Shown here: in pieces, positions 1,590 through 64,000 of the stretch
Layout: each line of letters begins with the position of its first letter
Position numbering within the stretch: the first letter of the stretch is position 1
From: a virus
Reading direction: 5' to 3' (one strand)
DNA: 64,000 nucleotides
IMG/VR virus record: IMGVR_UViG_3300044647_001784
Location: 22,297-86,296 of that record
The notes under the pieces: model-generated
The model's input: the letters and a program-made list of their open reading frames with translations, nothing else
Databases searched by the model: none
Told to the model about the DNA's origin: nothing
Position numbers and translations under genes: made by a program

Positions 1590-2041
1590 TATACTTCTTC
1601 CAGTGCGATAGATAGGTCCCAAAATGCTTGTGCAGTGTCCGCCGCATTTTCTTTAACATTTCTTCTTACCATAGTTGCTGAGCATGAAGTAAATGAGGCA
1701 AGGAAAGTTTCTGTTCTTGTAGAATTATATGCAATTTTTACATTAAATGTGCCTTGTCCATGAGCACTTAAATAAAAGTTTTTTATATCTTCTGCTCCCC
1801 AGTATCCATCTACGGTCATAGAGGTGTATGAAGGGACCATGCTCCAGGAGGTAGAGACTGTCTTCTTATCGGCTATAAACAGCTTTCTAAGGCTTCCATT
1901 GGCCATCCTAGAAGTCTTCTCGAACCTTTGTGTTTCTACTACTATGGGGCTTCTGTTATGTTCAGTTAATGAATGGAAAACGCCAGCAGCGTCTTGCACA
2001 AACAAAGCTGCTCCTGCTGGTAAAACTAAAGCCGTTGCCAT
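1589..2041 (-). CDS. Minor tail / distal tail protein
   Basis: 150 aa directly after the tape measure gene, TAATG-coupled; 'SRMANGSLRK' and terminal 'WDLSIALEEV' resemble siphophage distal-tail-like proteins. Confidence 0.55.
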   Translation of the reverse strand: MATALVLPAGAALFVQDAAGVFHSLTEHNRSPIVVETQRFEKTSRMANGSLRKLFIADKKTVSTSWSMVPSYTSMTVDGYWGAEDIKNFYLSAHGQGTFNVKIAYNSTRTETFLASFTSCSATMVRRNVKENAADTAQAFWDLSIALEEV

Positions 2042-22054: not shown

Positions 22055-22389
22055 GTTACTGATCCCCCTCGCAATACTGAATCTTTGTATTCGCCTATGT
22101 CAAGCGGGTCTGGTGTAAGTCCCCACTTAAGTCTTTGGTTTTGATATTCAAACTCTTCATCATCAATTTTTCTTCTTCCAGACAAAAACTTAGGCTGTCC
22201 CTCATAAATTCCATAGTGTCTTACTGCATCCGCCAGCAAAGCCATGCGGGCACGATTTCCTTTTTTAGAAGTTATTGAAAGAAAGTTGCCATCGTCGTCA
22301 CCAATCCAGCGTCCGTCTGGCATTTCCCATACGTATATTCCGAGAGTGGTTTCCTCGATTACCTGGCTTTTTTGGTTTAAGATGTCCAT
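22051..22389 (-). CDS. Hypothetical protein upstream of portal
   Basis: 112 aa, 4-nt overlap with the portal start. Confidence 0.6.
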   Translation of the reverse strand: MDILNQKSQVIEETTLGIYVWEMPDGRWIGDDDGNFLSITSKKGNRARMALLADAVRHYGIYEGQPKFLSGRRKIDDEEFEYQNQRLKWGLTPDPLDIGEYKDSVLRGGSVT

Positions 22390-47716: not shown

Positions 47717-48034
47717 TATAATCCACATGCCCAACTATCTGAAATACCCCTTATAAAGCCCGTAGAGGCTCTCTAAGCCTTTACTAGGCTTTTGCCTACC
47801 CAAGGGCGGGAGAGGGCCAAAAAGTCCCTTTACGACGATATCTTTTATTGTCCCAAGTATAATCAATAGGACGTATATATATCAAGGTATTATATAGACT
47901 CATCTTCGTCATCGACATCAAAGATATCTCTAATCCCGCCGATTTTTTCAATTATCTGAGAAAAGAATATACTTGCAGAAAAGAATAATAGCGTAGGTAT
48001 CATAACCATTTTAAGATACTTCTTCATATATATC

Positions 48035-49863: not shown

Positions 49864-49889
49864 AATATTATTATACTCTTTTTATATTG

Positions 49890-49962
49890 TAGGGATACTG
49901 GGACTTGAACCCAGACTCTATTGTATATAAGACAAGTGCTTTCACCATTAAGCTATATCCCC
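49890..49962 (-). tRNA. tRNA-Ile (anticodon UAU)
   Basis: GGGGATA acceptor; D-arm GCTT/AAGC; loop CT-TAT-AT; T-arm CTGGG-TTCAAGT-CCCAG; CCA not encoded. Confidence 0.85.
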
Positions 49963-50408
49963 TAGTTTGTATAGACTTGCAGAAGTATTCCGCATATACA
50001 TACTAGGATTGATATTACACCTATCCAAAATATAGTTTTCATTTTCCGCCCTTTATTAGCTTATTGATGCAACTAACGCAAAAGTTTTCTAGTACGCCTT
50101 TTGAGTTTAATCTTTCAACGTATTTTGGTCTATCACAGAAGTTGCATTTCATAATTTAAGTATATCATATTTTTAGTTGACTGCTATTTGAGATCTTACA
50201 AAATGTTAATAAATTTTTAATATGTATGATACACATATTTGAAATGTCCGTTTTGTCTGCATAGTCCGCACATATGTTTAAGGGCTTGAGCGTGAGTGTG
50301 ATGGACCTCACAAAAGTTTTTTGACGACACGCCCGAGAAACGGGCATAAATGTCAGTCCCCCCTGCTATGCTTAAGGTATAACAAAAACAAACGAAAGGG
50401 GTCACACA

Positions 50409-50564
50409 ATGACTCAACTAACCGAAACACTATTTAGCACTATCGTGCACGATTTCCACAATGGTGGCGTAAAGTCATCTTATGGATTAGATGCGTACAC
50501 ACGCAAGGAAATCCTTGCCTACCTTATCCGCTCTAAGGGTTGCGAGTGCATCAACTGTCTGTGA
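50409..50564 (+). CDS. Small hypothetical protein (51 aa, C-terminal CxCxxC)
   Basis: Below the ORF-track cutoff; first gene behind promoter 50351 with AACGAAAGG RBS. Confidence 0.6.
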   Translation: MTQLTETLFSTIVHDFHNGGVKSSYGLDAYTRKEILAYLIRSKGCECINCL

Positions 50565-50748
50565 GGTAAATCACACGACACACCCTAGCAACCTCCCCAA
50601 TTTGTCAGCCCCATACGCTACAATTACAACATAACAACAACGAAAGGTCAGAATAAATGACACTAGATGAATACAAGGCGCTAGTAGAAGCGCAACGCAA
50701 GGAAAGCCTTGCACAAGCCCTATCCGCACTAACAAAAGAGGTTAAATA

Positions 50749-50931
50749 ATGTCATACGCATACTCATACCAAACCAATAGCGTGTCTAAGTGGGATACTA
50801 TCCAAGAGGATGTCGCAGACCAATACACTTACCTTGATGAGGTAGATGAGGAACAACCTCCACTAGATGAATTCTATGATGAAGATTCTGAACAACTAGC
50901 ACAACTATTCGCACTAACATGGGAGAACTAA
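50749..50931 (+). CDS. Small acidic hypothetical protein
   Basis: ORF track; GAGG RBS; TAATG coupling. Confidence 0.6.
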   Translation: MSYAYSYQTNSVSKWDTIQEDVADQYTYLDEVDEEQPPLDEFYDEDSEQLAQLFALTWEN

Positions 50932-51082
50932 CAATGACTATCACTTACTCACTATGGGACGGGGCACAATTCCTCGGTTTCTTTACCGCTACTAGCGCAG
51001 ATGAAATGCTAAAGGTAGTAAGCGACTTACAAAAAGTTTCTAAAAATGTAGTAGCACATATGCGAAAGGTAGAACAGAACTA

Positions 51083-51274
51083 ATGACAATAGAACTAGAT
51101 GACTACGGCTTAATGATTGACCTAGGTGATTTTCTCTATGTATCTCTATCATGGGCGTTTATTATTTTGACCGCCGTTATTCTTGTCGGTGCTAAGGTAT
51201 ACAATAAGATAAAGAGTAATAAGCAAGTAGCCCCTATCGGCTTTAACAATGATGATGATTGGATGACTAAATGA
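51083..51274 (+). CDS. Small membrane protein
   Basis: One hydrophobic segment. Confidence 0.55.
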   Translation: MTIELDDYGLMIDLGDFLYVSLSWAFIILTAVILVGAKVYNKIKSNKQVAPIGFNNDDDWMTK

Positions 51275-51940
51275 ATCGCTTACTAACTACACTAGTGCAA
51301 CTATCTATCGCTATCCCCGCCCTATACATGATGAGGATCGTGTACCATGATTTCAAGGCAGAGATGCGAGAGATGTGGCAAGAATCACACTAGGGTAACG
51401 GCGTGTCGCCTTGACAAAGGCGTCAGCTGCCCCTATCTTTTGTGGGGGGTTATCCACAGGTTAAGAAGGTCTGTGGAAAACCCCTGAAATTTTGTGAGAT
51501 TTATCACATAGGCTGAGCGTCTCACATCTTGGAATTACTCGCTAGTAAGTAGCCAAATGTCAGCCCCTTAGTGTAAAATTCCTACTATAACAACAACGAA
51601 AGGGGTCATACCTTGACCATACTAATCTCATCAGAGGTTTTAGAGAATAGAGAATTATCTAACTCTAATCCATACATGTATCAAAAAGCAAAAACTTATT
51701 TGCTATCATGCACAATTTGTGCGAATAACTATTTAGAAATTTTTGCAAAAGATGCAGACTTTACTAAATTTACTTGTGAGGAGTGCTGGTAATCATGGCA
51801 GTTTATGAGTTTAATGCTTTTATAAATGTAGAGGCTGAATCCTATGATGATGCTATTGATACATTTCAATTTCAATTAAAATACGGAATAAATCAAAATA
51901 ATGTTTATGTTGCCGACATAAGAGATTTGGAGTTAAGCGA

Positions 51941-52135
51941 ATGAAATCAGATTTCGAAAAAGATTTAGAAATTAAAGAAAGTTTTATTGATTTACTAAAT
52001 GATGTTTATCCTACTGTAAAAATTGGTTATTCAACTTTTACACCCGCCGAAATTTTAGAATGTTGCGACCCAGTAGCATTTGCAATTGGTTTAGTAGAAC
52101 ACGCAGATTATTTAGCAGAAATGGAAAACGAATGA
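51941..52135 (+). CDS. Hypothetical protein
   Basis: ORF track; GGAG RBS. Confidence 0.6.
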   Translation: MKSDFEKDLEIKESFIDLLNDVYPTVKIGYSTFTPAEILECCDPVAFAIGLVEHADYLAEMENE

Positions 52136-52504
52136 GCGACTTATTTGGATTTGAAAAAGCAATTCAGCTCGATCATCTTAGCGATGAACAAATAAATCAA
52201 TTAGAGGAAATTCTAAAAGATTATCAATAGATAGCGGCGTGTCGCCTTGACAAACAGGGCGGCACCCCCACATATGCACGGGGTCGGGCGTGTCGTTATG
52301 AAGATGTTATAAAATCCCCCGAAATTTACGGCGTGTCGATTTGACAGGGTTATCCACAGATCTCGGGCGTGTCGTCCACAGGCTAAATGTGATTACTATC
52401 ACACGGCTTGAGCGTCTCATTATTTGGATTTACTGGCTAGTAATTATCTTTTGTCAGTGCTATCCGCTATAATTGCTACTATCAACAAACGAAAGGCGGA
52501 CTCC

Positions 52505-52717
52505 ATGTCAGCAAATGTCTACACAATCGAAAGCCTACTTGTAGGAAAAATGTATCGCTCAAATTCTCTTACTGGAGAAATTATCTCAGCAGAAAAAAAT
52601 GATAGTGTCTGGTATGCAAATGCAGATACTTACAAAGTGCAGGTACGCCCAATTTATTCTGCACCGCTAAATCTAAAAGATACTTACCGCTATTTAGCCG
52701 TAAAAACTTCCGATTAA
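52505..52717 (+). CDS. Hypothetical protein
   Basis: Start moved to ATG 52505 behind promoter 52452 and GAAAGG. Confidence 0.6.
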   Translation: MSANVYTIESLLVGKMYRSNSLTGEIISAEKNDSVWYANADTYKVQVRPIYSAPLNLKDTYRYLAVKTSD

Positions 52718-52806
52718 ATAAAATCGAAACAGGGGCAGTTTAGAGAGTGTTCTCGCCCAATGTCGTAAGTAAGAACTCTCACCAATTTTTTAACGAAAGG
52801 AAAACT

Positions 52807-52971
52807 ATGCTAAACATAATCGACAAAACCGATTTCTATGAAATCGCAGATGAGCAACACTTTTGCTGTGATGAAAGTCAGTTTAAGTATTACTGTATCG
52901 AACACCTAGAATTTATGGGTTGCTACTTTTGCGGATTTGACTATGACAAAGATTGCGAGGAACAACACTAA
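52807..52971 (+). CDS. Small Cys-rich acidic protein
   Basis: AACGAAAGG RBS; CC..C..CxxC..C. Confidence 0.55.
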   Translation: MLNIIDKTDFYEIADEQHFCCDESQFKYYCIEHLEFMGCYFCGFDYDKDCEEQH

Positions 52972-53290
52972 TGGGATACATTGAGATTTTTAGAATGGAT
53001 CAAGACGGGGCGGGTTGGGTAGATTTATCCGAAGCCACCCCCGATGAACTATTTACTATTGAGGTTGGGCTACTTAATGAGGGAGCCTTATTCACTAGCC
53101 CCGAAGCCGACTAAATGTCAGTGGGCTAGGCTATAATAAGCAATAACAACAACGAAAGGAAAACTATGATTAACTCAGTAATGACTATCGAGTGCGTGGA
53201 TTGCCACGGATACGGAATTATCTTTTTTGGTAATGATAACGACTATGATTGCGAGCCATGCGATTGCGTGGAAGAATTGGAGAACAACTA

Positions 53291-53494
53291 ATGTATAAAT
53301 TAACTTGTGCTTATGACGGACACGCTCCTCATTGGTCAGCAGAATACGAAAACGAATTTGGTGCATGGGAAAACTTTTTCTTATTCACCGATTGGGGATT
53401 TGCTAACGAATACTCAACTGTAAATATTTACACGCCAACAGGCAAATGCTATACAAAAGTTTTCTACAGAACAGGAATGGTATCAGTTAAATGA
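53291..53494 (+). CDS. Hypothetical protein
   Basis: Start at TAATG overlap 53291. Confidence 0.55.
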   Translation: MYKLTCAYDGHAPHWSAEYENEFGAWENFFLFTDWGFANEYSTVNIYTPTGKCYTKVFYRTGMVSVK

Positions 53495-53682
53495 TGACAC
53501 GAAAAGATTATGTCGCAACCGCTGAAATTCTAAAGTATGTAAGCGATAAAACTCACCCCGCTGTTTTTTCTAAAATGGTAAATGATTTTGCGGAGATGTT
53601 CGCAAAAGATAATGAGCGATTTGATGTAAAACGATTTCACGAAGCGAGTGGATACAATGTTCCAAAATTCACTTCGAGATAA
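53491..53682 (+). CDS. Hypothetical protein
   Basis: 'MTRKDYVATAEIL...FAKDNERFD..RF'; ATGA overlap. Confidence 0.6.
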   Translation: MMTRKDYVATAEILKYVSDKTHPAVFSKMVNDFAEMFAKDNERFDVKRFHEASGYNVPKFTSR

Positions 53683-54038
53683 AGTAAAACGCATTCAGGA
53701 ATTGCGCCGCAGTAATGCGGCGCAACCTGTTCGCAATAAAAAAAAATACACACGCAAAATAAAACATAAAAATAAATTTGACACTTAACGCAAAATCCCG
53801 CACATAGCTGCGGGGTCGGGCGTGTCGTTAAGGACGTGATGTAAATCACCCTGGAATTTTGGGCGTGTTGTGGAAAATGTCAGTGGCCTATGGTATTATT
53901 CTCTTAAATCAAACGAAAGGCTCATCCCATGGATTTTTATGATGACTACTATGAAACAGATATGATACGCCCTGACGCTAAGTCATGCTATTGTACTAAC
54001 CATTCTATTTGTACTAATTGCACTAAGGGGTATAACTA

Positions 54039-54761
54039 ATGACTAAACTAAAAAGATCTAATGATAGAAAGGTGGCTAACCTTGTCACAAAAAATGGAAA
54101 GCAAGCCGCAATTGCGAACACGTTCGGGCTCCCTGCAGGAAAGAATTATTCATGCCCTGGTGCCACTAGTATTTGTGAGAGTGTTTGCTACGCAGGAAAA
54201 CTCGAAAAGGTATTCCCAAGCGTTAAAGTAAATCTATTGCATAACTGGGAATTACTAAAAGACGCAGACGGTGAAACTATGGTGCGTCTACTTAATGAAA
54301 TGATAATTGACTTCAAGGCTGATTGTGTAAAGAAAGACGCACCTATGCTATTCCGTATCCACTGGGACGGAGACTTCTTCAATGATACTTATGCATATGC
54401 ATGGAAAATAGTTATTGATAAGCATGAGGATGTTCAATTCTGGGTTTATACTCGTGTAAAGTCTGCGGCGCTTATTCTTAAGGATGTATCTAATCTATCG
54501 CTATACTATTCAACGGATGATGATAATAAAGAAATCGCATTCGACTTAAAAACTAATTCAAAAATCCGCCTTGCTTATCTTGGTAAGACATTCGCTGCAA
54601 CCGAAGACACAATGAAAGAATTGACTGGTAAGCCTGGTGCTAAGTGTCCTGAGAATATGAAGAGTATTCCACTTATCTCTAGCAATGGGTCCGCCTGCGT
54701 ATCTTGTGGTCTATGCGTATATGGTAAAGCGGATATTAGATTTTCTGCGAGTAAAAAATAA
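54039..54761 (+). CDS. Mycobacteriophage gp88-like Cys-rich (Fe-S / radical-SAM-like) protein
   Basis: 'FGLPAG..SCPGA...C...CYA', 'FRIHWDGDF', 'FWVYTR', C-terminal CP...CxxCxxC. Confidence 0.7.
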   Translation: MTKLKRSNDRKVANLVTKNGKQAAIANTFGLPAGKNYSCPGATSICESVCYAGKLEKVFPSVKVNLLHNWELLKDADGETMVRLLNEMIIDFKADCVKKDAPMLFRIHWDGDFFNDTYAYAWKIVIDKHEDVQFWVYTRVKSAALILKDVSNLSLYYSTDDDNKEIAFDLKTNSKIRLAYLGKTFAATEDTMKELTGKPGAKCPENMKSIPLISSNGSACVSCGLCVYGKADIRFSASKK

Positions 54762-55040
54762 TGTATGAGGTTATTGGTATGATTGGCGGATCTATGGTAA
54801 TTCTTATATCGCTCCTGCCAATTTTATTAGCTGCATATGTAATATCTAAATTGTAACAGCGTGTCGGCTTGACAATGTCAAGCTGGCCCGCAATGTTGCG
54901 GGGTTATCCACAGGTTTAAGGGGCTTATCCACAAGCCCCTGGAATTATGTGAGATTTATCACAAGGCTCATGCGTAAATAGATTAGGTAATGTCAGTGGG
55001 CTATGTTATAATTCTCTTATCCAACAACGAAAGGCAATAA

Positions 55041-55244
55041 ATGAAAATAGAACACAACCTAAAGTTTGTAACTGAGTTTGCAGACGGACACCCAATAACT
55101 GCACGGGTAATGGCACTTGATGAGTCAATGCGTACTGAAATGCTTGAAGGTATGCTAAAGGATTTAGTAGGCTCTCGCTTGCAACCAATTCTTGATGAAA
55201 TAAATGCCAATGGCTCATACGCAATTCTAAAGGTTGCTGAATAA
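55041..55244 (+). CDS. Hypothetical protein
   Basis: Behind promoter 54991 with CAACGAAAGG leader. Confidence 0.6.
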   Translation: MKIEHNLKFVTEFADGHPITARVMALDESMRTEMLEGMLKDLVGSRLQPILDEINANGSYAILKVAE

Positions 55245-55513
55245 TGGGAAGTGTAACAGCACTAGGTATTCAGGACAGTGTGTTAGATTTAGAAACACAA
55301 TTAGCCTATCACTTACAGGGTAATCACTATCCACCCGTTCCACTATCTATGGTACCAGTATGTATTCAGGCAATAGATTTTGCTTATGATGAAATGTGGG
55401 ATGAAACTATTGAAATGCCTGATGGTATTTCTTATAAGGGTGAAACATGTGCGCCAGTATGGGCGATCATCGAGGCTCACCACTTACACTTTTGGCTACC
55501 TGAAAGTGACTAA
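55244..55513 (+). CDS. Hypothetical protein
   Basis: 'HLQGNHYPPVP...IEAHHL'; TAATG coupling. Confidence 0.6.
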   Translation: MGSVTALGIQDSVLDLETQLAYHLQGNHYPPVPLSMVPVCIQAIDFAYDEMWDETIEMPDGISYKGETCAPVWAIIEAHHLHFWLPESD

Positions 55514-55608
55514 GGTCACACAATAACTTTCTCAAATAATGAGATGGGGGTTGATAAATGTCAGCCCCCAATGCTACAATACTACCCTACAAAGAAAAGA
55601 GGCAATAA

Positions 55609-55791
55609 ATGACAATACAAGATAAGTTGTATCAGGTTGGAGATTTATTCACTACCCTAAAGTCAAAAAAGACGGGCGTGATTAAAGAAATCCACCCACA
55701 AGCATCTGGCTCGGTGCGTGTGCTACTAGAAATGCCAACAAAGGAAACTCGCTGGACAACAGTATCAGCAAGCACCCTAGCAGGTAATTAG
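55609..55791 (+). CDS. Small beta-rich hypothetical protein
   Basis: Behind promoter 55559. Confidence 0.55.
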   Translation: MTIQDKLYQVGDLFTTLKSKKTGVIKEIHPQASGSVRVLLEMPTKETRWTTVSASTLAGN

Positions 55792-55876
55792 CATAGGGCA
55801 GGGGGGTCGCAGAAATGTCAGACCCTCCTGCTATACTACTCTAACAAACAACCAACCAACGAAAGAGAGAAAATAA

Positions 55877-56299
55877 ATGGCACGACAGAAAGCAATTAGC
55901 GTAAAGATAGCAACACCAAAGGTAATCAAGGCACTAGAAACTCGCTTGACAAAGTTAAATGCCGATTACGCATCACAAGAAGCCAACGAAGCAAAGCACG
56001 AAAAGGCTTTAGAAAAGTGGCGCAAAGAAGTAGGAAAGTTCGCTATGGCTAATTTTGCTAAGGCAGAAAACTTCCGCACAAACTATCGCTCATGGAATAA
56101 GACACTTAATGTTGATTTCGATTTAACAGTTAATGAGTCAGACTTTCCTAAAGAGCCTGAGAAGGACTACGAAGTTCTCCACCGCCACTCATACAATGAG
56201 ATGAAAGAGGAATTGGAAAACGCAATTCGTATTCTAAAGATGACAGATGAGGAAACAGTAAGCACAAGCACTTACAATGCTATTGCTCGTTATCTCTAA
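55877..56299 (+). CDS. Hypothetical protein
   Basis: 140 aa behind promoter 55816. Confidence 0.65.
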   Translation: MARQKAISVKIATPKVIKALETRLTKLNADYASQEANEAKHEKALEKWRKEVGKFAMANFAKAENFRTNYRSWNKTLNVDFDLTVNESDFPKEPEKDYEVLHRHSYNEMKEELENAIRILKMTDEETVSTSTYNAIARYL

Positions 56300-56308
56300 A
56301 TAATCCAA

Positions 56309-56335
56309 CGACCTGAGTATGTCGCCAAACTGCTC
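56309..56335 (+). ncRNA. Candidate small H-type pseudoknot (copy 1)
   Basis: CGAC-CTGAGTAT-GTCG-CCAAAC-TGCTC. Confidence 0.45.
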
Positions 56336-56370
56336 TCCCTTTTGGGACAACTACTAACAAAGGTAATACA

Positions 56371-56598
56371 ATGCGGTTCAAGATAGAAATGTATGACGAA
56401 GTAAAACAAAACGACTTAACAATTTATTCTGATGAAGGCTATGACAATGAAAGCCTAAAGGAATTAGTTTTCTCAAACTTAAAAAGATTTGACGGAAATG
56501 TTAAGGCTTTTGTTTATGATCAAAAAAATAAAAAGAAAACATCAGCAGCGTTCTTTCCAATGGAAACAGTAAACTATGTAAAGTCCTTATCTAAGTGA
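56371..56598 (+). CDS. Hypothetical protein
   Basis: AAAGG RBS; followed by hairpin 56601-56626. Confidence 0.55.
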   Translation: MRFKIEMYDEVKQNDLTIYSDEGYDNESLKELVFSNLKRFDGNVKAFVYDQKNKKKTSAAFFPMETVNYVKSLSK

Positions 56599-56803
56599 AA
56601 GGTGGGGCAGCTAATTCTGCCCCGCCCAAGCTTGGCCCGCAATAATGTGCGGGGTTTTCCACAGGTTTAAGAGGGCCTGTGGATAACGCCTGGAATTTGT
56701 GAGATTACTCACATGGATCAATTCGGACATATTGTAACTAATCATAGACAATGTCAGTGGGGTCTGTTATACTTACAACTAACTAAACGAAAGGTAAAAA
56801 TAT

Positions 56804-57811
56804 ATGGCTCACAATCTCGAAACCGAAAACGGCGAAGTTGCTTTTGCATTGCGTGGCGCACCTGCATGGCATAATCTTGCTAATCGTATCTTCACACAAG
56901 ATGAAGATGTTACTACTCAAATGATGTTAGATGAGGCAAAACTATCTAACTGGAATGTTCGTCTATCTCCATTGACCGACCACATCTCAGATACATGGAA
57001 TGATGTATCTAATGCTCAATTAGTTATTCGTGACAACCCATTCAATAGCGGAACTGATGTTCTTGCTACTGTTGGTAAGCGTTACAAGCCTGTGCAAAAT
57101 GAAGAATTGTTTGCATTCGCAGATGCAATTCATGATGCCAATGCTGATTGCCGTTGGGAATCTGCTGGCTCACTTCGTAGCGGTAAGGTTGTTTTTGGTA
57201 CTGTGGATATTCCTCGCACAATGGTGCTTGACCCACAAGGTGCAAATGATGAAACCAAGTTGTATCTAATTGTTTGGACATCACATGACGGGTCTGTTGC
57301 GGTTCAGGCTGCAGTTACCCCTGTTCGTGTAGTTTGCCAAAACACATTGAATCTTGCAATGCGTAATGCTAAGCAATCTTTCAAGATTCGTCACACGCAA
57401 TCTGTTGAAGGTCGCATTCAAGTAGCCCGCGAAACTCTTGGGCTTGCTCTTGGATACTTTGATGAATTTGAGAAAGAGGCTCAGGCTCTTTATTCTCAAT
57501 CAATTACTGATGCTGAATTCTCAAAGTTAATTCAGACAATTTATCCTAAGCCAGATAAAGATTCTGCTAAGGTTGCGCTAACTAAGTGGGAGAATAAGGT
57601 TGTCCTTCTTGACAATCTTTATCATAACTCACCAACTAACGCTAACATCAAGGGAACTAAGTGGGGTGCGTTCAATGCACTAACTGAACGCCTTGACTAT
57701 TATCGTTCAGGTCGCGGAAATTCTGAAACACTTATGGCTGGTGCATCAGGGTTTGACCCAATTCTTACCGCAGAAAAAAATAAAATTAAGAAATTAATTT
57801 CTGCGTTTTAA
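56804..57811 (+). CDS. DUF932 / TIGR03299-like phage/plasmid protein
   Basis: 'PAWH.L', 'VGKRYKPVQN', 'ESAGSL..G', 'SHDGS', 'TPVRVVCQNTL', 'RHT', 'WGAFNALTE'. Confidence 0.85.
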   Translation: MAHNLETENGEVAFALRGAPAWHNLANRIFTQDEDVTTQMMLDEAKLSNWNVRLSPLTDHISDTWNDVSNAQLVIRDNPFNSGTDVLATVGKRYKPVQNEELFAFADAIHDANADCRWESAGSLRSGKVVFGTVDIPRTMVLDPQGANDETKLYLIVWTSHDGSVAVQAAVTPVRVVCQNTLNLAMRNAKQSFKIRHTQSVEGRIQVARETLGLALGYFDEFEKEAQALYSQSITDAEFSKLIQTIYPKPDKDSAKVALTKWENKVVLLDNLYHNSPTNANIKGTKWGAFNALTERLDYYRSGRGNSETLMAGASGFDPILTAEKNKIKKLISAF

Positions 57812-57818
57812 TAAATAA

Positions 57819-57846
57819 ATTCCTGAGCATGAATAAAAACTGCTCA
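57819..57846 (+). ncRNA. Candidate small H-type pseudoknot (copy 2)
   Basis: ATTC-CTGAGCAT-GAAT-AAAAAC-TGCTCA. Confidence 0.45.
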
Positions 57847-57858
57847 CAATTTTTTCTA

Positions 57859-57932
57859 GGTCCATTAGCTCAGTTGGTTAGAGCGCTACCCTGTCACGGT
57901 AGAGGTCGACGGTTCAAGTCCGTTATGGATCG
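57859..57932 (+). tRNA. tRNA-Asp (anticodon GUC)
   Basis: GGTCCAT/ATGGATC acceptor; CTACC-CTGTCAC-GGTAG anticodon arm; GACGG-TTCAAGT-CCGTT T-arm. Confidence 0.9.
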
Positions 57933-58038
57933 CAAATCGCCCGCAATATTTAGGGACAAAAAAGTGTGTTAAGTGTCACATAAAAAAATCCCTGGAATCT
58001 ATAGACAAATGTCAGTGGGACCCTGTATAATTCTCTAC

Positions 58039-58656
58039 ATGACCAACGAACTAGTATCAAGCGTATATACATTTGTCTGTGACCCAGATGAATGCGATTC
58101 TTTAATTCAATTAACATCATCTGATGGATTTGGTTTTCCTTCAGGTGTGACAGAACTCACATGCCCTTGCGGACGTAAGACCACCTTATTGTCAGTCGAG
58201 CATGCTACAATTACACCAACAACAACGGAAGAGGTAAAAATGGAAACAACTACAGACAATCACTACATGACACGAGAATTCCTTGAGTCACAGTTAGTAG
58301 ATAACAAAGCCCGCATTACACAGTTAGAAGAGCACATCCAGCGTATAACTCAGCGTGATTATGCAACTGCAGGAACTCTAAGCAAATTGCGTGATGACAT
58401 GAAGGTATTCACACTCGAAGGCCTTGATGACGAATCTCTTACAGAATTTCAAGCAGAAGAAATTGCTGGCATCTGTGGATTTGAACTAACAAATGAGTTT
58501 GAACTAGAAGTAACAGTTCTATATTCAATTACAGTTAATGCTCGTGATGAAGAGAGTGCACATAATCTAATTCATGATATTGATTTTGACACCGTGTCTT
58601 ATGACTCAGACGGTATTAGTTGGCTATCATCATCTGTAGATAGAATTGAGAACTAA
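58039..58656 (+). CDS. Hypothetical protein; leaderless long form (Cys-rich N-terminus) with internal start at 58240
   Basis: ATG 7 nt after the -10 of promoter 58010; a second promoter (58190) and GAGG RBS precede in-frame ATG 58240. Confidence 0.6.
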   Translation: MTNELVSSVYTFVCDPDECDSLIQLTSSDGFGFPSGVTELTCPCGRKTTLLSVEHATITPTTTEEVKMETTTDNHYMTREFLESQLVDNKARITQLEEHIQRITQRDYATAGTLSKLRDDMKVFTLEGLDDESLTEFQAEEIAGICGFELTNEFELEVTVLYSITVNARDEESAHNLIHDIDFDTVSYDSDGISWLSSSVDRIEN

Positions 58657-58976
58657 TGTTAAAAGAAGGAGAAAACATTGTTTACCTTAAATTAAGAATT
58701 CAAAATGAAATAAAAGATTTAAGTTTAAATCATCCTGAATTATTAGAAGAGTATAAGCAAGATGCAATTAAATCTATTTTTAATTCAGCTATCCTTAAAG
58801 AAACTTTGTCCGTTAAAGAGTTTAGGGATTTAGTGTCAACAGTACGACCTGATTTTTATGAGGGGTATACGATTGAAGATGCAGAAGCGGAATGGGAATC
58901 TATAAAAACAGGCATGATTATTGTTTCTCTTTTTGTTGTGATAGTTGGCGCTCTTATACTTAAGTGGGTGTTCTAA
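58656..58976 (+). CDS. Hypothetical protein with C-terminal TM helix
   Basis: ORF track; TAATG coupling. Confidence 0.55.
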   Translation: MLKEGENIVYLKLRIQNEIKDLSLNHPELLEEYKQDAIKSIFNSAILKETLSVKEFRDLVSTVRPDFYEGYTIEDAEAEWESIKTGMIIVSLFVVIVGALILKWVF

Positions 58977-59179
58977 TGTACTTTGAACTTACCGCTCCAT
59001 CTCGTGTAGCCTTTGCGAGGGCCATTTGGGATGCAGAAATAACTGGACTAGACCCTGAAGCAATGAGTGCATTGACATTCAACATAGGAACTGGTAGTAT
59101 TGAGAAAGTAAGTAGGATTCGTGATAAGTATAACTTAATTGAATCTTATGTAAGCGACAGTAAAACTACAGGATACTAG
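58976..59179 (+). CDS. Hypothetical protein
   Basis: Start at TAATG overlap. Confidence 0.55.
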   Translation: MYFELTAPSRVAFARAIWDAEITGLDPEAMSALTFNIGTGSIEKVSRIRDKYNLIESYVSDSKTTGY

Positions 59180-59330
59180 GAGATAAAATGTCAGACTATA
59201 AAGATGGTTTTGAAGATGGGTACAAGTTTGCCCGTGAAGAAATTATAGAAAAACTATCAGAGATTGATATCGCAGATATTGATACATGGATTCTTGATCG
59301 TCTATCTGACATGATAGAAGGCGGAACGCT

Positions 59331-59528
59331 ATGAACGAATGGGTTGGGTGCGATAAGTGTAACTCAGTAGTACCTGCAATGTATTTAATTAAAATGGTTA
59401 GCGGAGAGCTTTCTTTCTGTGGACACCACTTTAATAAGTTCAAGCCTAGTCTTGACAAAATCGCTTACGAAGTGATAGAATTAAACAAAAAGGAAGAAGT
59501 ACCTCAACTAGTAGAAATGGCGGAATAA
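59331..59528 (+). CDS. Small Zn-finger-like protein (CxxC...CxHH)
   Basis: 'CDKC...LSFCGHH'. Confidence 0.6.
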   Translation: MNEWVGCDKCNSVVPAMYLIKMVSGELSFCGHHFNKFKPSLDKIAYEVIELNKKEEVPQLVEMAE

Positions 59529-59529
59529 A

Positions 59530-59931
59530 ATGGGAGATAGAGCAAACTTCGGATTTAAACAATCCAATGGAGAAACAATTGTGCTATACGGACACTGGGC
59601 TGGACATGGAATGTTAGAGCGCTTAGCAGATGCTGTTGAAGCAGCACGTTCTAGGTGGGGAGATGAATCATATGCTACCCGCATTGCGGTTTCGCATTTA
59701 GTTGGAGAACAATGGCAAGATACAACTGGATGGGGATTATCTGTTAATAACATCCTAGACAACGAGCACAAGATTCCTGTGATTGACTGGAATACACAAA
59801 CGTTTTCACTGCACGAAGAGGCGCCTTGGTCCGAGTCGACAGAATATAAGGTCCGTGGAATGCAAGACGAGCCCATATTCAAAATGACATTGGATTCATT
59901 TATTAATAAGTACTCAAGGGTTAATGCATAA
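59530..59931 (+). CDS. Hypothetical protein
   Basis: 133 aa; 'LYGHWAG'. Confidence 0.65.
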   Translation: MGDRANFGFKQSNGETIVLYGHWAGHGMLERLADAVEAARSRWGDESYATRIAVSHLVGEQWQDTTGWGLSVNNILDNEHKIPVIDWNTQTFSLHEEAPWSESTEYKVRGMQDEPIFKMTLDSFINKYSRVNA

Positions 59932-59940
59932 TTAATCTAA

Positions 59941-60067
59941 GGGTGCCCCTATAGTCATTAATGGCCAGGGGTTAAATAAAGCAGAGTTCTTTTACTTTCG
60001 TTGGTGAACCTCTAGCAGCCTATGTAAAACCCCAGTTATGGAATAAGCCCCTACAGCTGGGGTTTTT
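59941..60067 (+). ncRNA. Candidate sRNA / structured 3' UTR with anti-RBS loop
   Basis: Three successive hairpins, the last terminator-like; the middle loop is TTTTACTTTCGTTGGT. Confidence 0.5.
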
Positions 60068-60246
60068 GCATGGCCCGCAAAAGACTAAGGGTAATATATT
60101 TCTTTTACGGTGTCAATATGAAATCGCCTGGAATTTTGTGATCTTGACCACATGCATACAAAATGTGGTGTGAAACACACCCAAATAGTATTCCATTTGT
60201 CAGTGGTCCAATGTATAATTATCACATATCAACGAAAGGATATAAA

Positions 60247-60981
60247 ATGCCAAATTGGGTATTTAATGGATTAACAATTGAAGGTAATCCTGAGCAAGTA
60301 AAATCTTTAATCAAGCAGATGAATAAGCCATTTGTTTATTCTATTACTGCATTAGGTGATTTATCATATGATGTCAAGCAGACTAAGTATATTAATCCTA
60401 TCTTTGCTTTTCATAATATCTATAACTATAGAGATGCTGGTATTACTGATGAGGTATATCATGGACAGCCTCCTCGTTCCACCGATTTTTCTCAGGCAAT
60501 GAAGTTTGAAACCAATGACTGGTACAACTTTAATGTGCGTGAGTGGGGAACCAAGTGGGATGTTGCTGTAGCAGAGGATAATAAGTATCCTGATACAACT
60601 ATTGAAGAAGCAGAAAATGGCGAGAACTATGTAGTTCATTACAATTTTAATACTGCATGGTCACGACCTCTTGGCGCTATTGAAAAACTATCTGCACAAT
60701 ACCCAACACTACTCTTTACTTTATCATATGAGGAAGAGACAGGTTGGGGTGGAGAAATGGAATTCCTCCGTGGTGAAGTTATCTCAGAATCAGAATACGA
60801 TAATATGTGCCGTGATTGTGATGCAACTGACCAAATGGAATACTGCGAGAATGACTGCGGTGAAATCTGTAGCAACTGCAACTGGCTTGGCGAGGCAGAC
60901 CTAGAGGCTGTCGCAATTTGTCAGACCCATAAGATATACTTAGACACTAAAGTACCCGAATATAGAAAGGCGGAAGCATAA
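60247..60981 (+). CDS. DUF1281/YubB ferredoxin-like family protein with Cys-rich tail
   Basis: 'MPNW', 'WYNFNVREWGTKWD', 'FNTAWSRP', 'YEEE'. Confidence 0.7.
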   Translation: MPNWVFNGLTIEGNPEQVKSLIKQMNKPFVYSITALGDLSYDVKQTKYINPIFAFHNIYNYRDAGITDEVYHGQPPRSTDFSQAMKFETNDWYNFNVREWGTKWDVAVAEDNKYPDTTIEEAENGENYVVHYNFNTAWSRPLGAIEKLSAQYPTLLFTLSYEEETGWGGEMEFLRGEVISESEYDNMCRDCDATDQMEYCENDCGEICSNCNWLGEADLEAVAICQTHKIYLDTKVPEYRKAEA

Positions 60982-61193
60982 TGGAAGCATTTACAGATAC
61001 AGTAGGAGAACATATCCTTGGAGCAATTCAAGTAGATATTGAGCAACATCTCTTTGAACAATGGAACAGCAAAAATTTAGATGAGGGTAGCGATTATGCT
61101 GAATATATGTTCATGCAATTTGCTCCTGATAGCCTAAAGCAATCATACAATGAGTATTATGGCTATATTGAGGGAGATGAGTTTCTATTATGA
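60981..61193 (+). CDS. Hypothetical acidic protein
   Basis: ORF track; TAATG coupling. Confidence 0.55.
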   Translation: MEAFTDTVGEHILGAIQVDIEQHLFEQWNSKNLDEGSDYAEYMFMQFAPDSLKQSYNEYYGYIEGDEFLL

Positions 61194-61505
61194 TTACATC
61201 ACAAGAACTACTTGACTATATGTATGATGACAACTTAAGTCATTTTGACGACAGAGACACATCAGATGATTGTGATTGTTATATTCACATAACACTTAAT
61301 ACTATGCTTAAATACATGGAGGCAATAGAATGTTAGGATATACTAAAACAGATATAGATGAAATGGGGAATGCTATGCATGACGCCAAGCTTTTCTATAT
61401 TCTTAAATCAGATATCGTTCGTGTTGATGAAGATCCAATTGTGGACGGGCTACTAAAAGCACAAGACTTTCTACAGGGCTTATGGGCAGAAGGGTACTTT
61501 GACTA

Positions 61506-61742
61506 ATGAAGTTTGGCGATGCTATGGTTCTTGCTCTACTTATTCAAATCCCGTTGATTCCCGTGGTTGCTTTTGTTGATTGGATTAATGCCCCTGATAA
61601 ACCAGATAAAGTAGTTTGTTATTATCAGGGAGGGTTTGGACATTTTGATGACCCAACTGTACACAAATACACAACAATTGGAAACTGTTCAATAACTCAT
61701 AAACAAAGATACTTTCTGAAAAAGGAGATAATTAATGACTAA
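61506..61742 (+). CDS. Small membrane/secreted protein
   Basis: N-terminal hydrophobic stretch. Confidence 0.5.
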   Translation: MKFGDAMVLALLIQIPLIPVVAFVDWINAPDKPDKVVCYYQGGFGHFDDPTVHKYTTIGNCSITHKQRYFLKKEIIND

Positions 61743-61944
61743 GTCATCTTATTTCCTGGAGTATATGAAGTTACATCTAATTAGTCTTAATCAAGATTGG
61801 GAAGATTCTAAAAATAGCGTACCTTTAAATGAAGATGAATATGACCCTTCAGATGATTACTATGTAGGAGCAACTGAGGCTGTTGAACATTTATTGTCAG
61901 TGGCTACTGATATAATGAATTCTTCTAACGAAAGGTATGAATAA
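61735..61944 (+). CDS. Hypothetical protein
   Basis: AGGAG RBS; contains promoter 61895. Confidence 0.55.
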   Translation: MTKSSYFLEYMKLHLISLNQDWEDSKNSVPLNEDEYDPSDDYYVGATEAVEHLLSVATDIMNSSNERYE

Positions 61945-62147
61945 TGAATATAACATCTAGAGAAGTTACTTATCGTTCCGCCGTTGAACAAATCTTTTTT
62001 GAGGACGGGACAGAATTGGTAATCACAGTCGGTGCTCCTGCCGAAGGCGGAGGAGATATCGATATTAAATATGATTGGGTAGAAGGAAAGCCTGATTGGG
62101 CAAACAACTTAAATGAATCAACACTAGTGAACTATGAGGTAATCTAA
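61944..62147 (+). CDS. Hypothetical protein
   Basis: Behind promoter 61895 with AACGAAAGG. Confidence 0.55.
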   Translation: MNITSREVTYRSAVEQIFFEDGTELVITVGAPAEGGGDIDIKYDWVEGKPDWANNLNESTLVNYEVI

Positions 62148-62419
62148 TGAATGCAGAAGACATTGGGCTCCCACCTCATTTGCAACGCATGGTCAATGCA
62201 GGTGTTAGTGGATTAGATATAATGCACGGAGAACTAAAGAATCTAATGTTAATTGCTGAGCAAGACCTAGCAAGCGCATTAGAACAGGAGGAATTGTCTG
62301 AAGAGGCAATGGATTCCATGGTCCGCACAGAATGTGAAGGGCGCCTAGACATGCTAGTAGAACTATATAATCTAACATACCAACTATCATTTGCGATTGG
62401 AGCACGGGATGAAGCCTGA
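62147..62419 (+). CDS. Hypothetical protein
   Basis: GAGG RBS; TAATG coupling. Confidence 0.55.
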   Translation: MNAEDIGLPPHLQRMVNAGVSGLDIMHGELKNLMLIAEQDLASALEQEELSEEAMDSMVRTECEGRLDMLVELYNLTYQLSFAIGARDEA

Positions 62420-62723
62420 CGATAAAGATAAACTAAACAAATGTTTAGAGATTCTAGACAGCACTGACTTAGGTCTATCATTAGTTTGGTTGTGGACATG
62501 GTCGACAATTGACAATATCTTAAATGATGACAACTACAAGGCCAAGGTAACCAAGGACCAGATGTGGGACCACCTCTGCGAGGCTGTGGAGGCTGGCCAA
62601 GGGTTCTCTTTGGAGTGGGGAGCAGAACAACATCAAGAAGAAGTTTTAGACTGGATGTTAAACAGGGACTACATCGTAGACCCCGAAGATGAAGATGAGG
62701 AGGACGAAGATGAAGATGAGTGA
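62409..62723 (+). CDS. Hypothetical protein with acidic tail
   Basis: Start at 62409; ends DPEDEDEEDEDEDE. Confidence 0.55.
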   Translation: MKPDDKDKLNKCLEILDSTDLGLSLVWLWTWSTIDNILNDDNYKAKVTKDQMWDHLCEAVEAGQGFSLEWGAEQHQEEVLDWMLNRDYIVDPEDEDEEDEDEDE

Positions 62724-62941
62724 TGACTATATTAATGATCAATTAAACAAGGCTCAACAATTGCTATGGGGTGGCAGCGAAACTGAAAACATCGAAGCCC
62801 ATAACATTATATCTAAACTAATTAAAGACAGAATAGAACAAGTTTCATAAGGGCAGAAAAAATGGTTTACGGCGACTATTTACAATTCCGTGGAAAGTTG
62901 CTATAATTAACAAAACAACTATCTCTTGAAAGGGGATTAAA

Positions 62942-63091
62942 ATGACAACAAAGCGTGAATATCTAAAGCAGCAGGGCATTACAGTTGGTGTGCGTGGGCG
63001 CTTCTCAGGAGCAGCCAAGGTAGCTCTAGCTGAGGCGGAGGCCAAGGGCGTTAAGTTTACTGCAGAGGCACCTGTCAAAAAGGCGAAGTAG
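62942..63091 (+). CDS. Lsr2-like DNA-binding-domain-only protein (49 aa)
   Basis: MTTKREYLKQQGITVGVRGRFSGAAKVAL...; own TTTACA-N17-TATAAT promoter and GAAAGGGG RBS; below the ORF-track cutoff. Confidence 0.65.
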   Translation: MTTKREYLKQQGITVGVRGRFSGAAKVALAEAEAKGVKFTAEAPVKKAK

Positions 63092-63100
63092 TTCTGGGAC

Positions 63101-63141
63101 GGGAGTCAGGGCTTCGTTGGTCCTTGACTCCCTCCTTTATT
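63101..63141 (+). terminator. Terminator hairpin with CTTCGTTGGT loop
   Basis: GGGAGTCAGGG-CTTCGTTGGT-CCTTGACTCCC followed by a T-rich tract. Confidence 0.7.
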
Positions 63142-63177
63142 TTTGGTACAATCAATAGTTAAAGAACAGGGGCGGAC

Positions 63178-63453
63178 ATGGCAAAGACATCATCAATCGA
63201 AACAAAGGCGGCAGAAAAAGTACTGGAGGCTATGGATAGTCATTGGTTTAATCCAACTATCATGGCACGGGAATTAGTCAATGGTTGTGGCTATTATACT
63301 CAATCTAAGGTAATGGAACTAGTAGTAGAAATTATCAAACAAACGGCGGGACAGTTTGATAATGCGTGGGAAGAAGGGGTTACATCAGAAGCCCTATTCA
63401 TGGCAGATAGACTAAATGACTACATTGCTAACTTTGAACCAATAGAGGCATAG
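63178..63453 (+). CDS. Hypothetical protein
   Basis: 91 aa; TGGTACAAT extended -10 upstream. Confidence 0.6.
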   Translation: MAKTSSIETKAAEKVLEAMDSHWFNPTIMARELVNGCGYYTQSKVMELVVEIIKQTAGQFDNAWEEGVTSEALFMADRLNDYIANFEPIEA

Positions 63454-63517
63454 CCAACATATAGATCAAGACCGAAAGGATATATTTATCTAAGTATTAC
63501 TCTTGATCATATAGCCC

Positions 63518-63560
63518 AAGATATCCATAGGATCTACACAGGTCCTGTGGATATCTTTTT
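63518..63560 (+). terminator. Intrinsic terminator
   Basis: AAGATATCCATAGGATC-tacaca-GGTCCTGTGGATATCTTTTT. Confidence 0.7.
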
Positions 63561-64000
63561 ATGTATGGGCATGTGGGCAAAATTATCCGTTTACGACCAA
63601 GCTTAAAAAATCGCTGGAATATTTGGCAGAATATAATAAAATGAATATAATATCTATTAAAACATATAATGAATTAGGCATAATATAGCCAGAATCTGTC
63701 AGAATTTATATCAAAATTTTATATAAAATATGTTGACAATGTGGGCCAAATATGCCTTTTACGACGCTATTGACAAATTCGCTGGAATATGCGCTATGTC
63801 TCATATAAGTCCATATGGCCCTATTGACATTACGACCATCATTATGATAAGCTCAATTACATAGTAATGTTTATCTTAGTATAACTATAGTATATGGATC
63901 TGAATCTATAGTATATATTCTCCACTATACTCCACTTTACTCCACATTAGAAGCCTTCTAGAGGCTCATACAAGGGAGATAAAGGGGAGGGGGATATAGG

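Follow-up and report, generated by a model that had tools for sequence, protein, structure and literature searches.

The 64,000-nucleotide window analysed here (positions 22,297 to 86,296 of IMG/VR virus record IMGVR_UViG_3300044647_001784, that is, the final 64 kb of an 86,296-base record) carries ten copies of a 45-bp intergenic scaffold in which three short sequence blocks flank two spacer slots of variable content. The scaffold is a repeated phage regulatory cassette, unusual in its non-canonical core and in its strictly conserved pairs of DnaA boxes. Judged from sequence comparison, it is a real, selected, directional and young element. The reading that we favor, at a probability of roughly 0.4, is that of a promoter/operator cassette which depends on an activator, is specific to this lineage and serves the small-gene region of an uncultured freshwater actinophage. 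By analogy with related phages, this region is probably early. Unless noted otherwise, coordinates are those of the window.

Scaffold copies, conservation and slot contents

The pattern GGG-N12-KTTAHG-N19-YGRAA (GGG-N12 being the GGGN-N11 of the initial annotation) had ten distinct copies in the whole record, all on the + strand and all between 51.4 and 63.8 kb of the window. With a first spacer of 11 or 12 bases, 15 matches were returned for the same ten copies, five of which start with GGGG and thus match in two registers. One hundred first-order Markov simulations gave a mean of 0.04 copies and a maximum of one, and the strict N11 form matched five times against 0.01 expected from shuffles. 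The structural and replication part of the genome contained zero full scaffolds. The core KTTAHG-N19-YGRAA alone had two additional matches, both on the - strand (23736 and 26368), where 1.72 were expected. The ten copies and the slot contents described in the initial annotation were recovered in full, and neither simulated sequence nor the structural region yielded scaffolds at a similar frequency. CCCGCA, said to precede several copies, did so in five cases (53797, 54887, 56636, 57940 and 60074). Of two partial copies, the one at 47814..47862 (+ strand) stands as a degenerate scaffold (GGG-N12-TTTACG, CCC 17 bases on, and AAGTAT for TGGAAT), while the one near 50277 consists of TTTAAG only and was not counted.

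All ten copies were intergenic, on the gene strand, and the first element past an upstream stop codon, terminator-like hairpin or tRNA-Asp. They were followed, in varying order, by a palindrome, a TGTCAG promoter and a shared AACGAAAGG ribosome site. Three copies contained six exact DnaA boxes (the 9-mer TTWTCCACA): 51445..51489, where slot 1 holds a box (51450) and slot 2 an inverted one (51472); 54900..54944, with two direct boxes (54904 and 54925); and 56651..56695, upstream of the gene for a 335-aa protein, with one box at 56655 and an inverted box at 56678. Full CRP/FNR-type palindromes lay directly after each of these three copies. Just upstream of copy 51445 was a GCGTGTC-N3-TTGACA-17-TATCTT unit (51401-51439), and copy 54900 was flanked by GCGTGTC-N3-TTGACA and a CCCGCA hairpin upstream and by TGTGA-N6-TCACA (54948) downstream. 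Two copies had TCGGGCGTGTC in slot 1: 52280..52324, with an AT-rich slot 2 and CGAAA instead of TGGAA, and 53812..53856, which had a CCCGCA..TGCGGG hairpin ahead of it and a GTGA-N6-TCAC palindrome in slot 2 (8 of the 10 positions of the CRP/FNR-type palindrome TGTGA-N6-TCACA). The slots of 57953..57997 were A-rich; this copy lay directly 3' of tRNA-Asp(GTC) (57859-57933, + strand) and 11 bases ahead of a TGTCAG promoter. Copy 60089..60133, with AT-rich slots, followed a terminator-like hairpin (60049-60062) and then CCCGCA. Copy 62851..62895 overlapped a canonical TTTACA-17-TATAAT promoter (62879-62907), the TTTACA being in slot 2. In the A-rich copies the A-tracts were located just upstream of the hexamer. 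The last two copies, 63575..63619 (no downstream open reading frame) and 63743..63787 (TTGACA in slot 2, no gene after it), were in a non-coding stretch past the last + strand gene; a complete relative has convergent - strand genes after this stretch.

The same non-coding stretch (63480-64000) also contained an inverted repeat with an 18-bp stem (63518-63557), ACTCCAC in three copies, TATAGTATAT in two, and a terminal palindrome. Its final 190 bases were 70-94% identical in 16 relatives, and from its sequence the stretch is a candidate origin or small-RNA locus.

Conservation was assessed in the best 80 of 267 related IMG/VR stretches (1.3 Mb); all 267 were confirmed for the lineage, which is abundant. 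The core was found with a 19-base spacer 234 times on the + strand versus 2 on the - strand, and with an 18-base spacer 212 versus 6 times; any other spacing from 13 to 26 gave 0-23 matches. GGG lay 12 bases upstream of the core in 212 matches, 11 bases upstream in 80 (mostly the GGGG register) and 13 bases upstream in nine. The invariant spacing reported earlier therefore holds in this genome but not in its relatives, where the second spacer is 18 or 19 bases and the first 11 to 13. Five relatives, each at least 92% complete, had 13, 5, 7, 6 and 2 rows for the full pattern, or 8, 4, 7, 6 and 2 distinct copies, on a single strand per genome; the eight copies of the closest relative spanned ~11 kb and those of the others 5-10 kb. 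The reversed pattern gave no match in these five genomes. Across IMG/VR the strict pattern occurred in 32 stretches, several of them on contigs of known relatives.

Over 258 unique instances the blocks were 88-100% conserved, and the slots were wholly different. The three bases ahead of YGRAA were C in 88%, 90% and 96% of instances, Y was T in 94%, and the positions after YGRAA were T or A (72 and 26%), T (73%) and T (74%). The G, A and A at positions 2, 4 and 5 of YGRAA were fixed by the search pattern; GGG reached 1.6-1.8 bits in the logo though unforced by that search. The resulting consensus was CCCGCAa..TGcGGG, an A-rich dodecamer, tTTACGa, and ..at..aAAA..CCCTGGAATtt.

The orthologue of copy 56651, upstream of the 335-aa gene, was present in all 54 unique sequences (80 loci and the window), and both DnaA boxes were kept in every one. 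The second box was inverted in 46 and direct in five; three more, left out by the parse, were inverted with AGGAAT for TGGAAT. The spacer was 18 bases in 28 and 19 bases in 23 of these orthologues. In the five near-complete relatives, DnaA-box pairs were 21 bp (direct) or 23 bp (inverted) apart, with 5-9 boxes per genome versus 0-3 in the reversed control. The register of copy 62851 over its canonical promoter was likewise kept in 18 unique sequences from relatives. A directional, selected, DNA-level element carrying host-type factor sites, as the initial annotation proposed, is borne out by the conserved blocks and by DnaA boxes that are retained in either orientation. Since a DnaA box holds its place while flipping its orientation, the site is expected to be read by a protein rather than as a helix, and the conservation as a whole points to protein binding and not to RNA.

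Eight of the nine TTWTCCACA sites in the record fell within 51.4-56.7 kb of the window, against 2.8 expected genome-wide. CRP/FNR-type palindromes gave 16 strand-matches (~9 sites, two with CCACA for TCACA) against 0.3 expected, and in 58 of 272 unique instances a TGTGA-N6-TCACA palindrome began 6-8 bases beyond the first base of YGRAA. GCGTGTC directly abutted KTTAHG (0 bases) in two copies and stood 3 bases before TTGACA at 51401, 52237, 52331 and 54859. On its template strand it holds GACAC, the actinobacterial WhiA motif, as motif presence only. Altogether, nine GCGTGT(C/T)G boxes occurred within 4.6 kb (50325-54866), four preceding TTGACA by 3 bases and two adjoining the scaffold hexamer.

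The joint slot types of 259 unique instances were: DnaA box with direct DnaA box, 30; DnaA box with inverted DnaA box, 29; DnaA box with a degenerate second box, 2; GCGTGTC with an AT-rich, CRP-like or other slot 2, 41; the remaining 157 were A-rich or other. Whenever slot 1 had a DnaA box, slot 2 had one as well (59 instances, plus the two with a degenerate second box), and GCGTGTC in slot 1 was found only with the AT-rich, CRP-like or other type of slot 2. The description of the slots as interchangeable was therefore overstated, given that their contents co-occur in fixed combinations; on these sequences, the versions of the scaffold look to be a few co-inherited cassette types and not free plug-ins.

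Promoter reading and rival explanations

As a promoter/operator cassette, the scaffold would use KTTAHG as a -35-like contact and CCC-TG-R-AAWTT as a weak, extended-minus-10-like element, with GGG, often accompanied by CCCGCA upstream, as its upstream edge. The two slots would then occupy the usual regulator positions, one directly upstream of the -35-like hexamer and one in the spacer. Three cassette types would exist: one with a DnaA-box pair two helical turns apart; one combining a CRP-type palindrome with the GCGTGTC box, whose template strand carries the WhiA motif GACAC; and one with plain A-tracts resembling an UP element. Because the core departs from sigma-A rules, a helper would be required, for which the lineage's WhiB-like protein is a candidate, the WhiB family binding region 4 of sigma-A. 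Binding by RNA polymerase, the assignment of the binders as DnaA, a CRP-like factor and WhiA, and the role of the WhiB-like protein are all predicted.

Several observations argue for this reading. GCGTGTC adjoins both KTTAHG and the canonical TTGACA, which places the scaffold hexamer in the -35 position. The strand and place of the scaffold, and the one-base tolerance of its spacers (18/19, and 11-13 upstream), are as in promoter spacers; the -35-like hexamer has A-tracts ahead of it and, downstream, a TG with an A/T hexamer after it. The predicted factor sites occupy both positions that are classical for operators, as well as the predicted start site, which the TGTGA-N6-TCAC palindrome 6-8 bases past the YGRAA start would cover. 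In Streptomyces, the motif bound by WhiA is an asymmetric GACAC that precedes the -35 on one or the other strand and at no fixed distance, and WhiA acts there with WhiB bound to sigma-A region 4 (PMC10243135). A WhiB-family gene was found above the Pfam cut-off in all five near-complete relatives; GACAC within GCGTGTC and the lineage's own WhiB-like protein together suggest a helper-dependent promoter.

The following points weigh against it. The scaffold does not have the layout of a sigma-A/sigma-70 promoter (a -35-like hexamer, a spacer of 16-18 and rarely 19 bases, and a -10 in which -11 is A and -7 is T). No canonical -10 (TAnnnT) was found 16-18 bases past KTTAHG in any of the ten copies. 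TGGAAT has a spacer of 18 or 19 bases and carries G at position 2, where the key A is expected; taking AAWTTT as the hexamer makes the spacer 21-22 bases. Downstream of TGGAAT, the 272 unique instances had no fixed -10 or -35 partner. We know of no sigma consensus that fits both boxes and the spacing, having considered sigma-54, sigma-B/F, sigma-H, several actinobacterial extracytoplasmic function (ECF) sigma factors and the Bacteroidetes -33/-7 type. Another promoter intervenes after all eight copies that precede a gene (TGTCAG-N10-TAnnnT in seven, canonical in one). A distant relative, 71% identical in the 335-aa protein, had 12 TGTCAG-N10-TAnnnT promoters and six GTGA-N6-TCAC palindromes on the gene strand, with no DnaA box and one altered scaffold only (GTTACG-N18-TGGACA) in 40 kb of its sequence, so the element is dispensable for this gene set. 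Finally, the whiB gene was not found in this record, a fragment with a CheckV completeness of 80%. Close relatives are complete at 110-117 kb, and an open reading frame is open at the record's left end (record bases 1-241, outside the window); the record therefore lacks ~24 kb, in which the lineage's whiB gene falls.

Transcript data also speak, weakly, against a scaffold promoter. RNA-library contigs from four lake metatranscriptome runs (one study) contained the small-gene region and matched much of window 50400-63500 at an identity of at least 99%. In total, 32 of 98 contig pieces were listed, and gaps in cover were not treated as evidence. Among the pieces listed, contig starts fell 3-27 bases beyond the points where the downstream promoters are predicted to initiate (52501 twice; 55039, 55040 and 55047; 56783, 56797 and 56806), another start, at 62908, lay ~6 bases short of the initiation point predicted for the canonical promoter (62879-62907), and no listed piece spanned a scaffold. 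Contigs cannot prove starts, so this pattern is only a weak hint.

The most specific form of the promoter reading, which we consider unlikely, is a new class of actinophage promoter used by the host sigma-A polymerase only after its remodelling by the phage WhiB-like protein. Its hexamer would be flanked by sockets for sensors of host state (DnaA pairs, or a WhiA-type box with a CRP palindrome), by which a lytic phage could make sets of takeover genes depend on the replication and cyclic AMP status of its host. Gene timing in phages of uncultured freshwater Actinobacteria is little known. If the scaffold is a promoter, its class would break with sigma-A rules in phages that lack a sigma gene but have a WhiB-like protein, and sigma remodelling by phage WhiB-like (Wbl) proteins would become directly testable. 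With pairs of DnaA boxes strictly kept in its control region, the phage would offer a clear example of a virus that either reads or drains the replication initiator of its host.

A serious rival, if on balance a doubtful one, is that the scaffold is a non-promoter platform on which a phage or host DNA-binding protein marks an upstream boundary, either as a stoperator-like oriented roadblock or silencer or as a repressor site for shut-off of the small-gene region later in infection. Such a protein would suit three short blocks that are conserved at set distances and all face the same way relative to transcription, as it would the position of the scaffold, always first past the upstream terminator with the real promoters further downstream. 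The RNA contigs point weakly the same way, since among the pieces listed they end before scaffolds (e.g., 51440 and 56578) and resume at downstream promoters. At 62851 the scaffold spans -64 to -18 of the canonical promoter, a repressor-like register seen in 19 unique sequences (the window and 18 relatives), and the distribution of the strict pattern across IMG/VR is lineage-specific. Twenty proteins from the small-gene region, however, had no DNA-binding Pfam domain at E<=0.01 and offered no candidate binder, the downstream promoter lies 11-73 bases away without clear helical phasing, and no repressor or integrase was seen. A phage protein as the binder, one of the two proposals of the initial annotation, is possible, and a promoter-like element fits the geometry at least as well. 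Even a boundary or repressor site would be a lineage-specific signature with which these phages and their early genes could be found. Improbable, in our estimate, is that the copies with DnaA boxes are DnaA-loading modules, either a replication origin that borrows host DnaA or decoy clusters that titrate it away from the origin of the host, on a scaffold that is incidental. The crowding of TTWTCCACA sites, the pairs at 21 or 23 bp in five relatives and the full retention of both boxes in the 54 orthologues would all be expected of such modules, and the phage has genes for a DnaB-like helicase, a primase and a DnaE-type polymerase with no recognised initiator. Yet seven of the ten copies share the scaffold without a DnaA box, the 71% relative has no such box in 40 kb, no AT-rich unwinding element was identified, and the binder is uncertain, as the third base of the DnaA box is usually given as G in Actinobacteria.

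Scarcely more can be said for a scaffold that is chiefly a recombination substrate, in which regulatory cassettes of ~45-160 bp, comparable to the PeSL elements of T4-type phages, would let the phage recombination genes shuffle small genes; we judge this quite improbable. The phage does encode RecA/UvsX-like, Cas4-type exonuclease and RuvC-like proteins, and the module at 54880-55040 (scaffold, palindrome, TGTCAG promoter and Shine-Dalgarno) matched relatives as one unit: among high-scoring segment pairs (HSPs) of at least 150 bases, 70 had their left end at 54880 and 60 their right end at 55040. Upstream of the 56651 orthologue the genes vary among relatives, and homology restarts at GGGG. 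From HSPs of at least 300 bases, 989 homology break points against relatives were obtained: 105 fell in scaffold intervals versus 58 expected (1.8-fold), but 519 fell within 15 bases of a gene start or stop versus 138 expected (3.7-fold), and the largest clusters (58960, 62140 and 58240) had no scaffold. The initial suggestion of a recombination site that delimits shufflable cassettes is weak by this measure. Moreover, slot types are not reshuffled, and short conserved blocks amid free spacers are not what recombination homology requires. Shuffling is not the reason for the conserved spacing; it is likely a by-product, as it is for PeSLs (PMC2839356; PMC4122927). A structured RNA (leader, attenuator or small RNA) is highly improbable and already largely refuted. 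Copies 51445 and 56651 fold well (z of -4.2 and -5.1), and in two to three copies an upstream TTGACA-17-(TATCTT/AATGTT) would start transcription at GGG. The other eight copies fold no better than shuffles, with z from -1.8 to +0.8 (52280, +0.4; 53812, +0.1; 54900, -1.8), and the two good folds are due solely to inverted DnaA boxes, being lost in orthologues with direct boxes. GGG..CCC could pair as G:C in 88-95% of 202 unique instances, but pairing beyond these three was not above chance (50 of 202 at the next position versus 42.9 by chance, standard deviation 5.2). No common RNA fold with compensatory changes was found. Rfam gave no scaffold match at E<=1, with only two tRNAs above the gathering score. 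An upstream CCCGCA..TGCGGG hairpin of at least 6 bp was present in 75 of 212 unique instances versus 23 of 212 with shuffled upstream bases, making it a feature of a subclass only.

Relation to known regulatory repeats

Promoters repressed or tuned by DnaA boxes, and clusters of DnaA boxes such as datA, are known. The scaffold resembles them in its pairs of consensus 9-mers about two helical turns apart around a promoter-like hexamer; it differs in belonging to a lytic-looking phage, with two to four pairs per genome, and in being a repeated scaffold that also exists without boxes. The stoperators of cluster A mycobacteriophages, which are temperate, are likewise asymmetric intergenic actinophage sites oriented with transcription. 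Each is a single 13-bp site for a repressor, but the element here is 45 bp long and tripartite, and no repressor was found.

In genome context the scaffold compares with the PeSLs (promoter-early stem-loop cassettes) of T4-type phages (PMC2839356; PMC4122927). Both are short composite motifs, present in many copies ahead of small ORFan genes in a plastic region, and all copies of the scaffold do lie in a plastic region of small genes of unknown function. In both, the -35 has AT-rich DNA on its upstream side, runs of G and runs of C flank the promoter, the elements sit at terminator/promoter junctions, and whole cassettes repeat before unrelated genes. PeSLs differ in having consensus sigma-70 -35 and -10 boxes, whereas the scaffold core has none and only copy 62851 overlaps a canonical promoter, in another register. 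Their stem-loops are stable terminators, whereas two of ten scaffold copies fold; host-factor sites are not known from PeSLs; and PeSLs are expected to form mini-circles and to mark insertion/deletion junctions between relatives, where break points here favor plain gene boundaries.

With the WhiA/WhiB-dependent sigma-A promoters of Actinobacteria (PMC10243135), the scaffold shares an asymmetric GACAC, on one or the other strand, that closely precedes a -35-type hexamer, a WhiB-family protein from the phage lineage, and A/T DNA further upstream for the alpha subunit's C-terminal domain. It differs in that the GACAC box is in only two of ten copies and no canonical -10 follows; the dependence is putative here. 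Halovirus HF2 is also reported to have classes of viral intergenic repeats that carry promoters (PMC8707807), but these are archaeal and unrelated in sequence. For the early promoters of phiC31, the literature yielded nothing usable for comparison.

Phage lineage, host and neighboring features

The - strand genes encode proteins of replication and recombination (DnaE-type polymerase, DnaB-like helicase, primase, RecA/UvsX-like protein, Cas4-type exonuclease and RuvC-like resolvase), virion proteins (tail proteins, a 3692-aa tape measure, capsid, protease and portal) and a ribonucleotide reductase. The window from 50.2 to 64 kb holds ~40 small genes in a + strand array; for the 20 proteins searched there, Pfam matches were almost nil. 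Contig ends of the relatives were compared and do not coincide, which indicates that the end of the window is not the physical end of the genome.

The host is very probably a freshwater actinobacterium, in view of the Streptomyces-type portal, the actinophage homologues of the 335-aa protein and the whiB gene of the lineage. In tblastn searches the portal was ~55% identical to its best matches, the portals of Streptomyces BE-cluster phages. The 335-aa product (gene 56804-57811) had matches in 630 phage records, mainly from Mycobacterium, Streptomyces, Microbacterium, Arthrobacter and Gordonia phages. In Streptomyces phages its homologue occurred twice per record, ~1.3-2.6 kb from the start at the best place listed, and we take the two places as long terminal repeats that the records leave unannotated. 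Wbl proteins have been reported solely from Actinobacteria and their phages (PMC13013590). Ordinary TTGACA-17-TAnAAT promoters precede the - strand genes, which suggests that the host polymerase is conventional. Sigma70_r2 had no match in the five near-complete relatives, and all r4_2 matches were below threshold. A search for T7-type polymerases was silent in its own controls too and so proves nothing.

Three other assignments were considered and dropped. N4-like hairpin promoters with a virion RNA polymerase had been suspected from the 3692-aa reading frame, which Pfam identified as a tape measure (PhageMin_Tail); the other large genes were of siphovirus type. A cyanophage (CL131-like) host was set aside on the grounds of the portal matches and the whiB gene; a 110-kb relative binned in a cyanobacterial metagenome-assembled genome (MAG) looks like a mis-binning, and the core pattern was not enriched in that MAG (42 matches versus 76 for the reversed control). 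An Lsr2-like assignment, made by eye for the RGR-containing 49-aa product of 62942-63091, had no support in Pfam (E<=0.01) or in PDB sequences.

The promoter-like units TGTCAG-N10-TGnTAnAAT numbered 15 on the + strand (50351-61916), ahead of most small genes, with three expected genome-wide. TGTCAG was often preceded by (T/A)(T/A)GACA-A, and at 54866-54878 the halves formed the perfect palindrome TTGACA-A-TGTCAA; by its sequence the TGTCAG box may be half of an operator over the -35. A further box, CGGACAT (56724-56729), between the palindrome and the promoter of the 335-aa gene, was kept in nearly all 54 unique orthologues, a few having TTAGGACA, GTGGACA or TGGGATA instead. At the same position, the 71% relative had YGGACA three times, at intervals of 9 bases. 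In Streptomyces phage Jay2Jay (bases 1-10,500), whose homologue of the 335-aa protein is encoded in the terminal repeat, CCGGACA stood in nearly every intergenic region around that gene, as part of another repeated module (CCGGACA ... TAGACT) and with no scaffold in that part. The CGGACAT-type box may be an older shared site. A tRNA-Ile(TAT) was located at 49889-49962 on the - strand.

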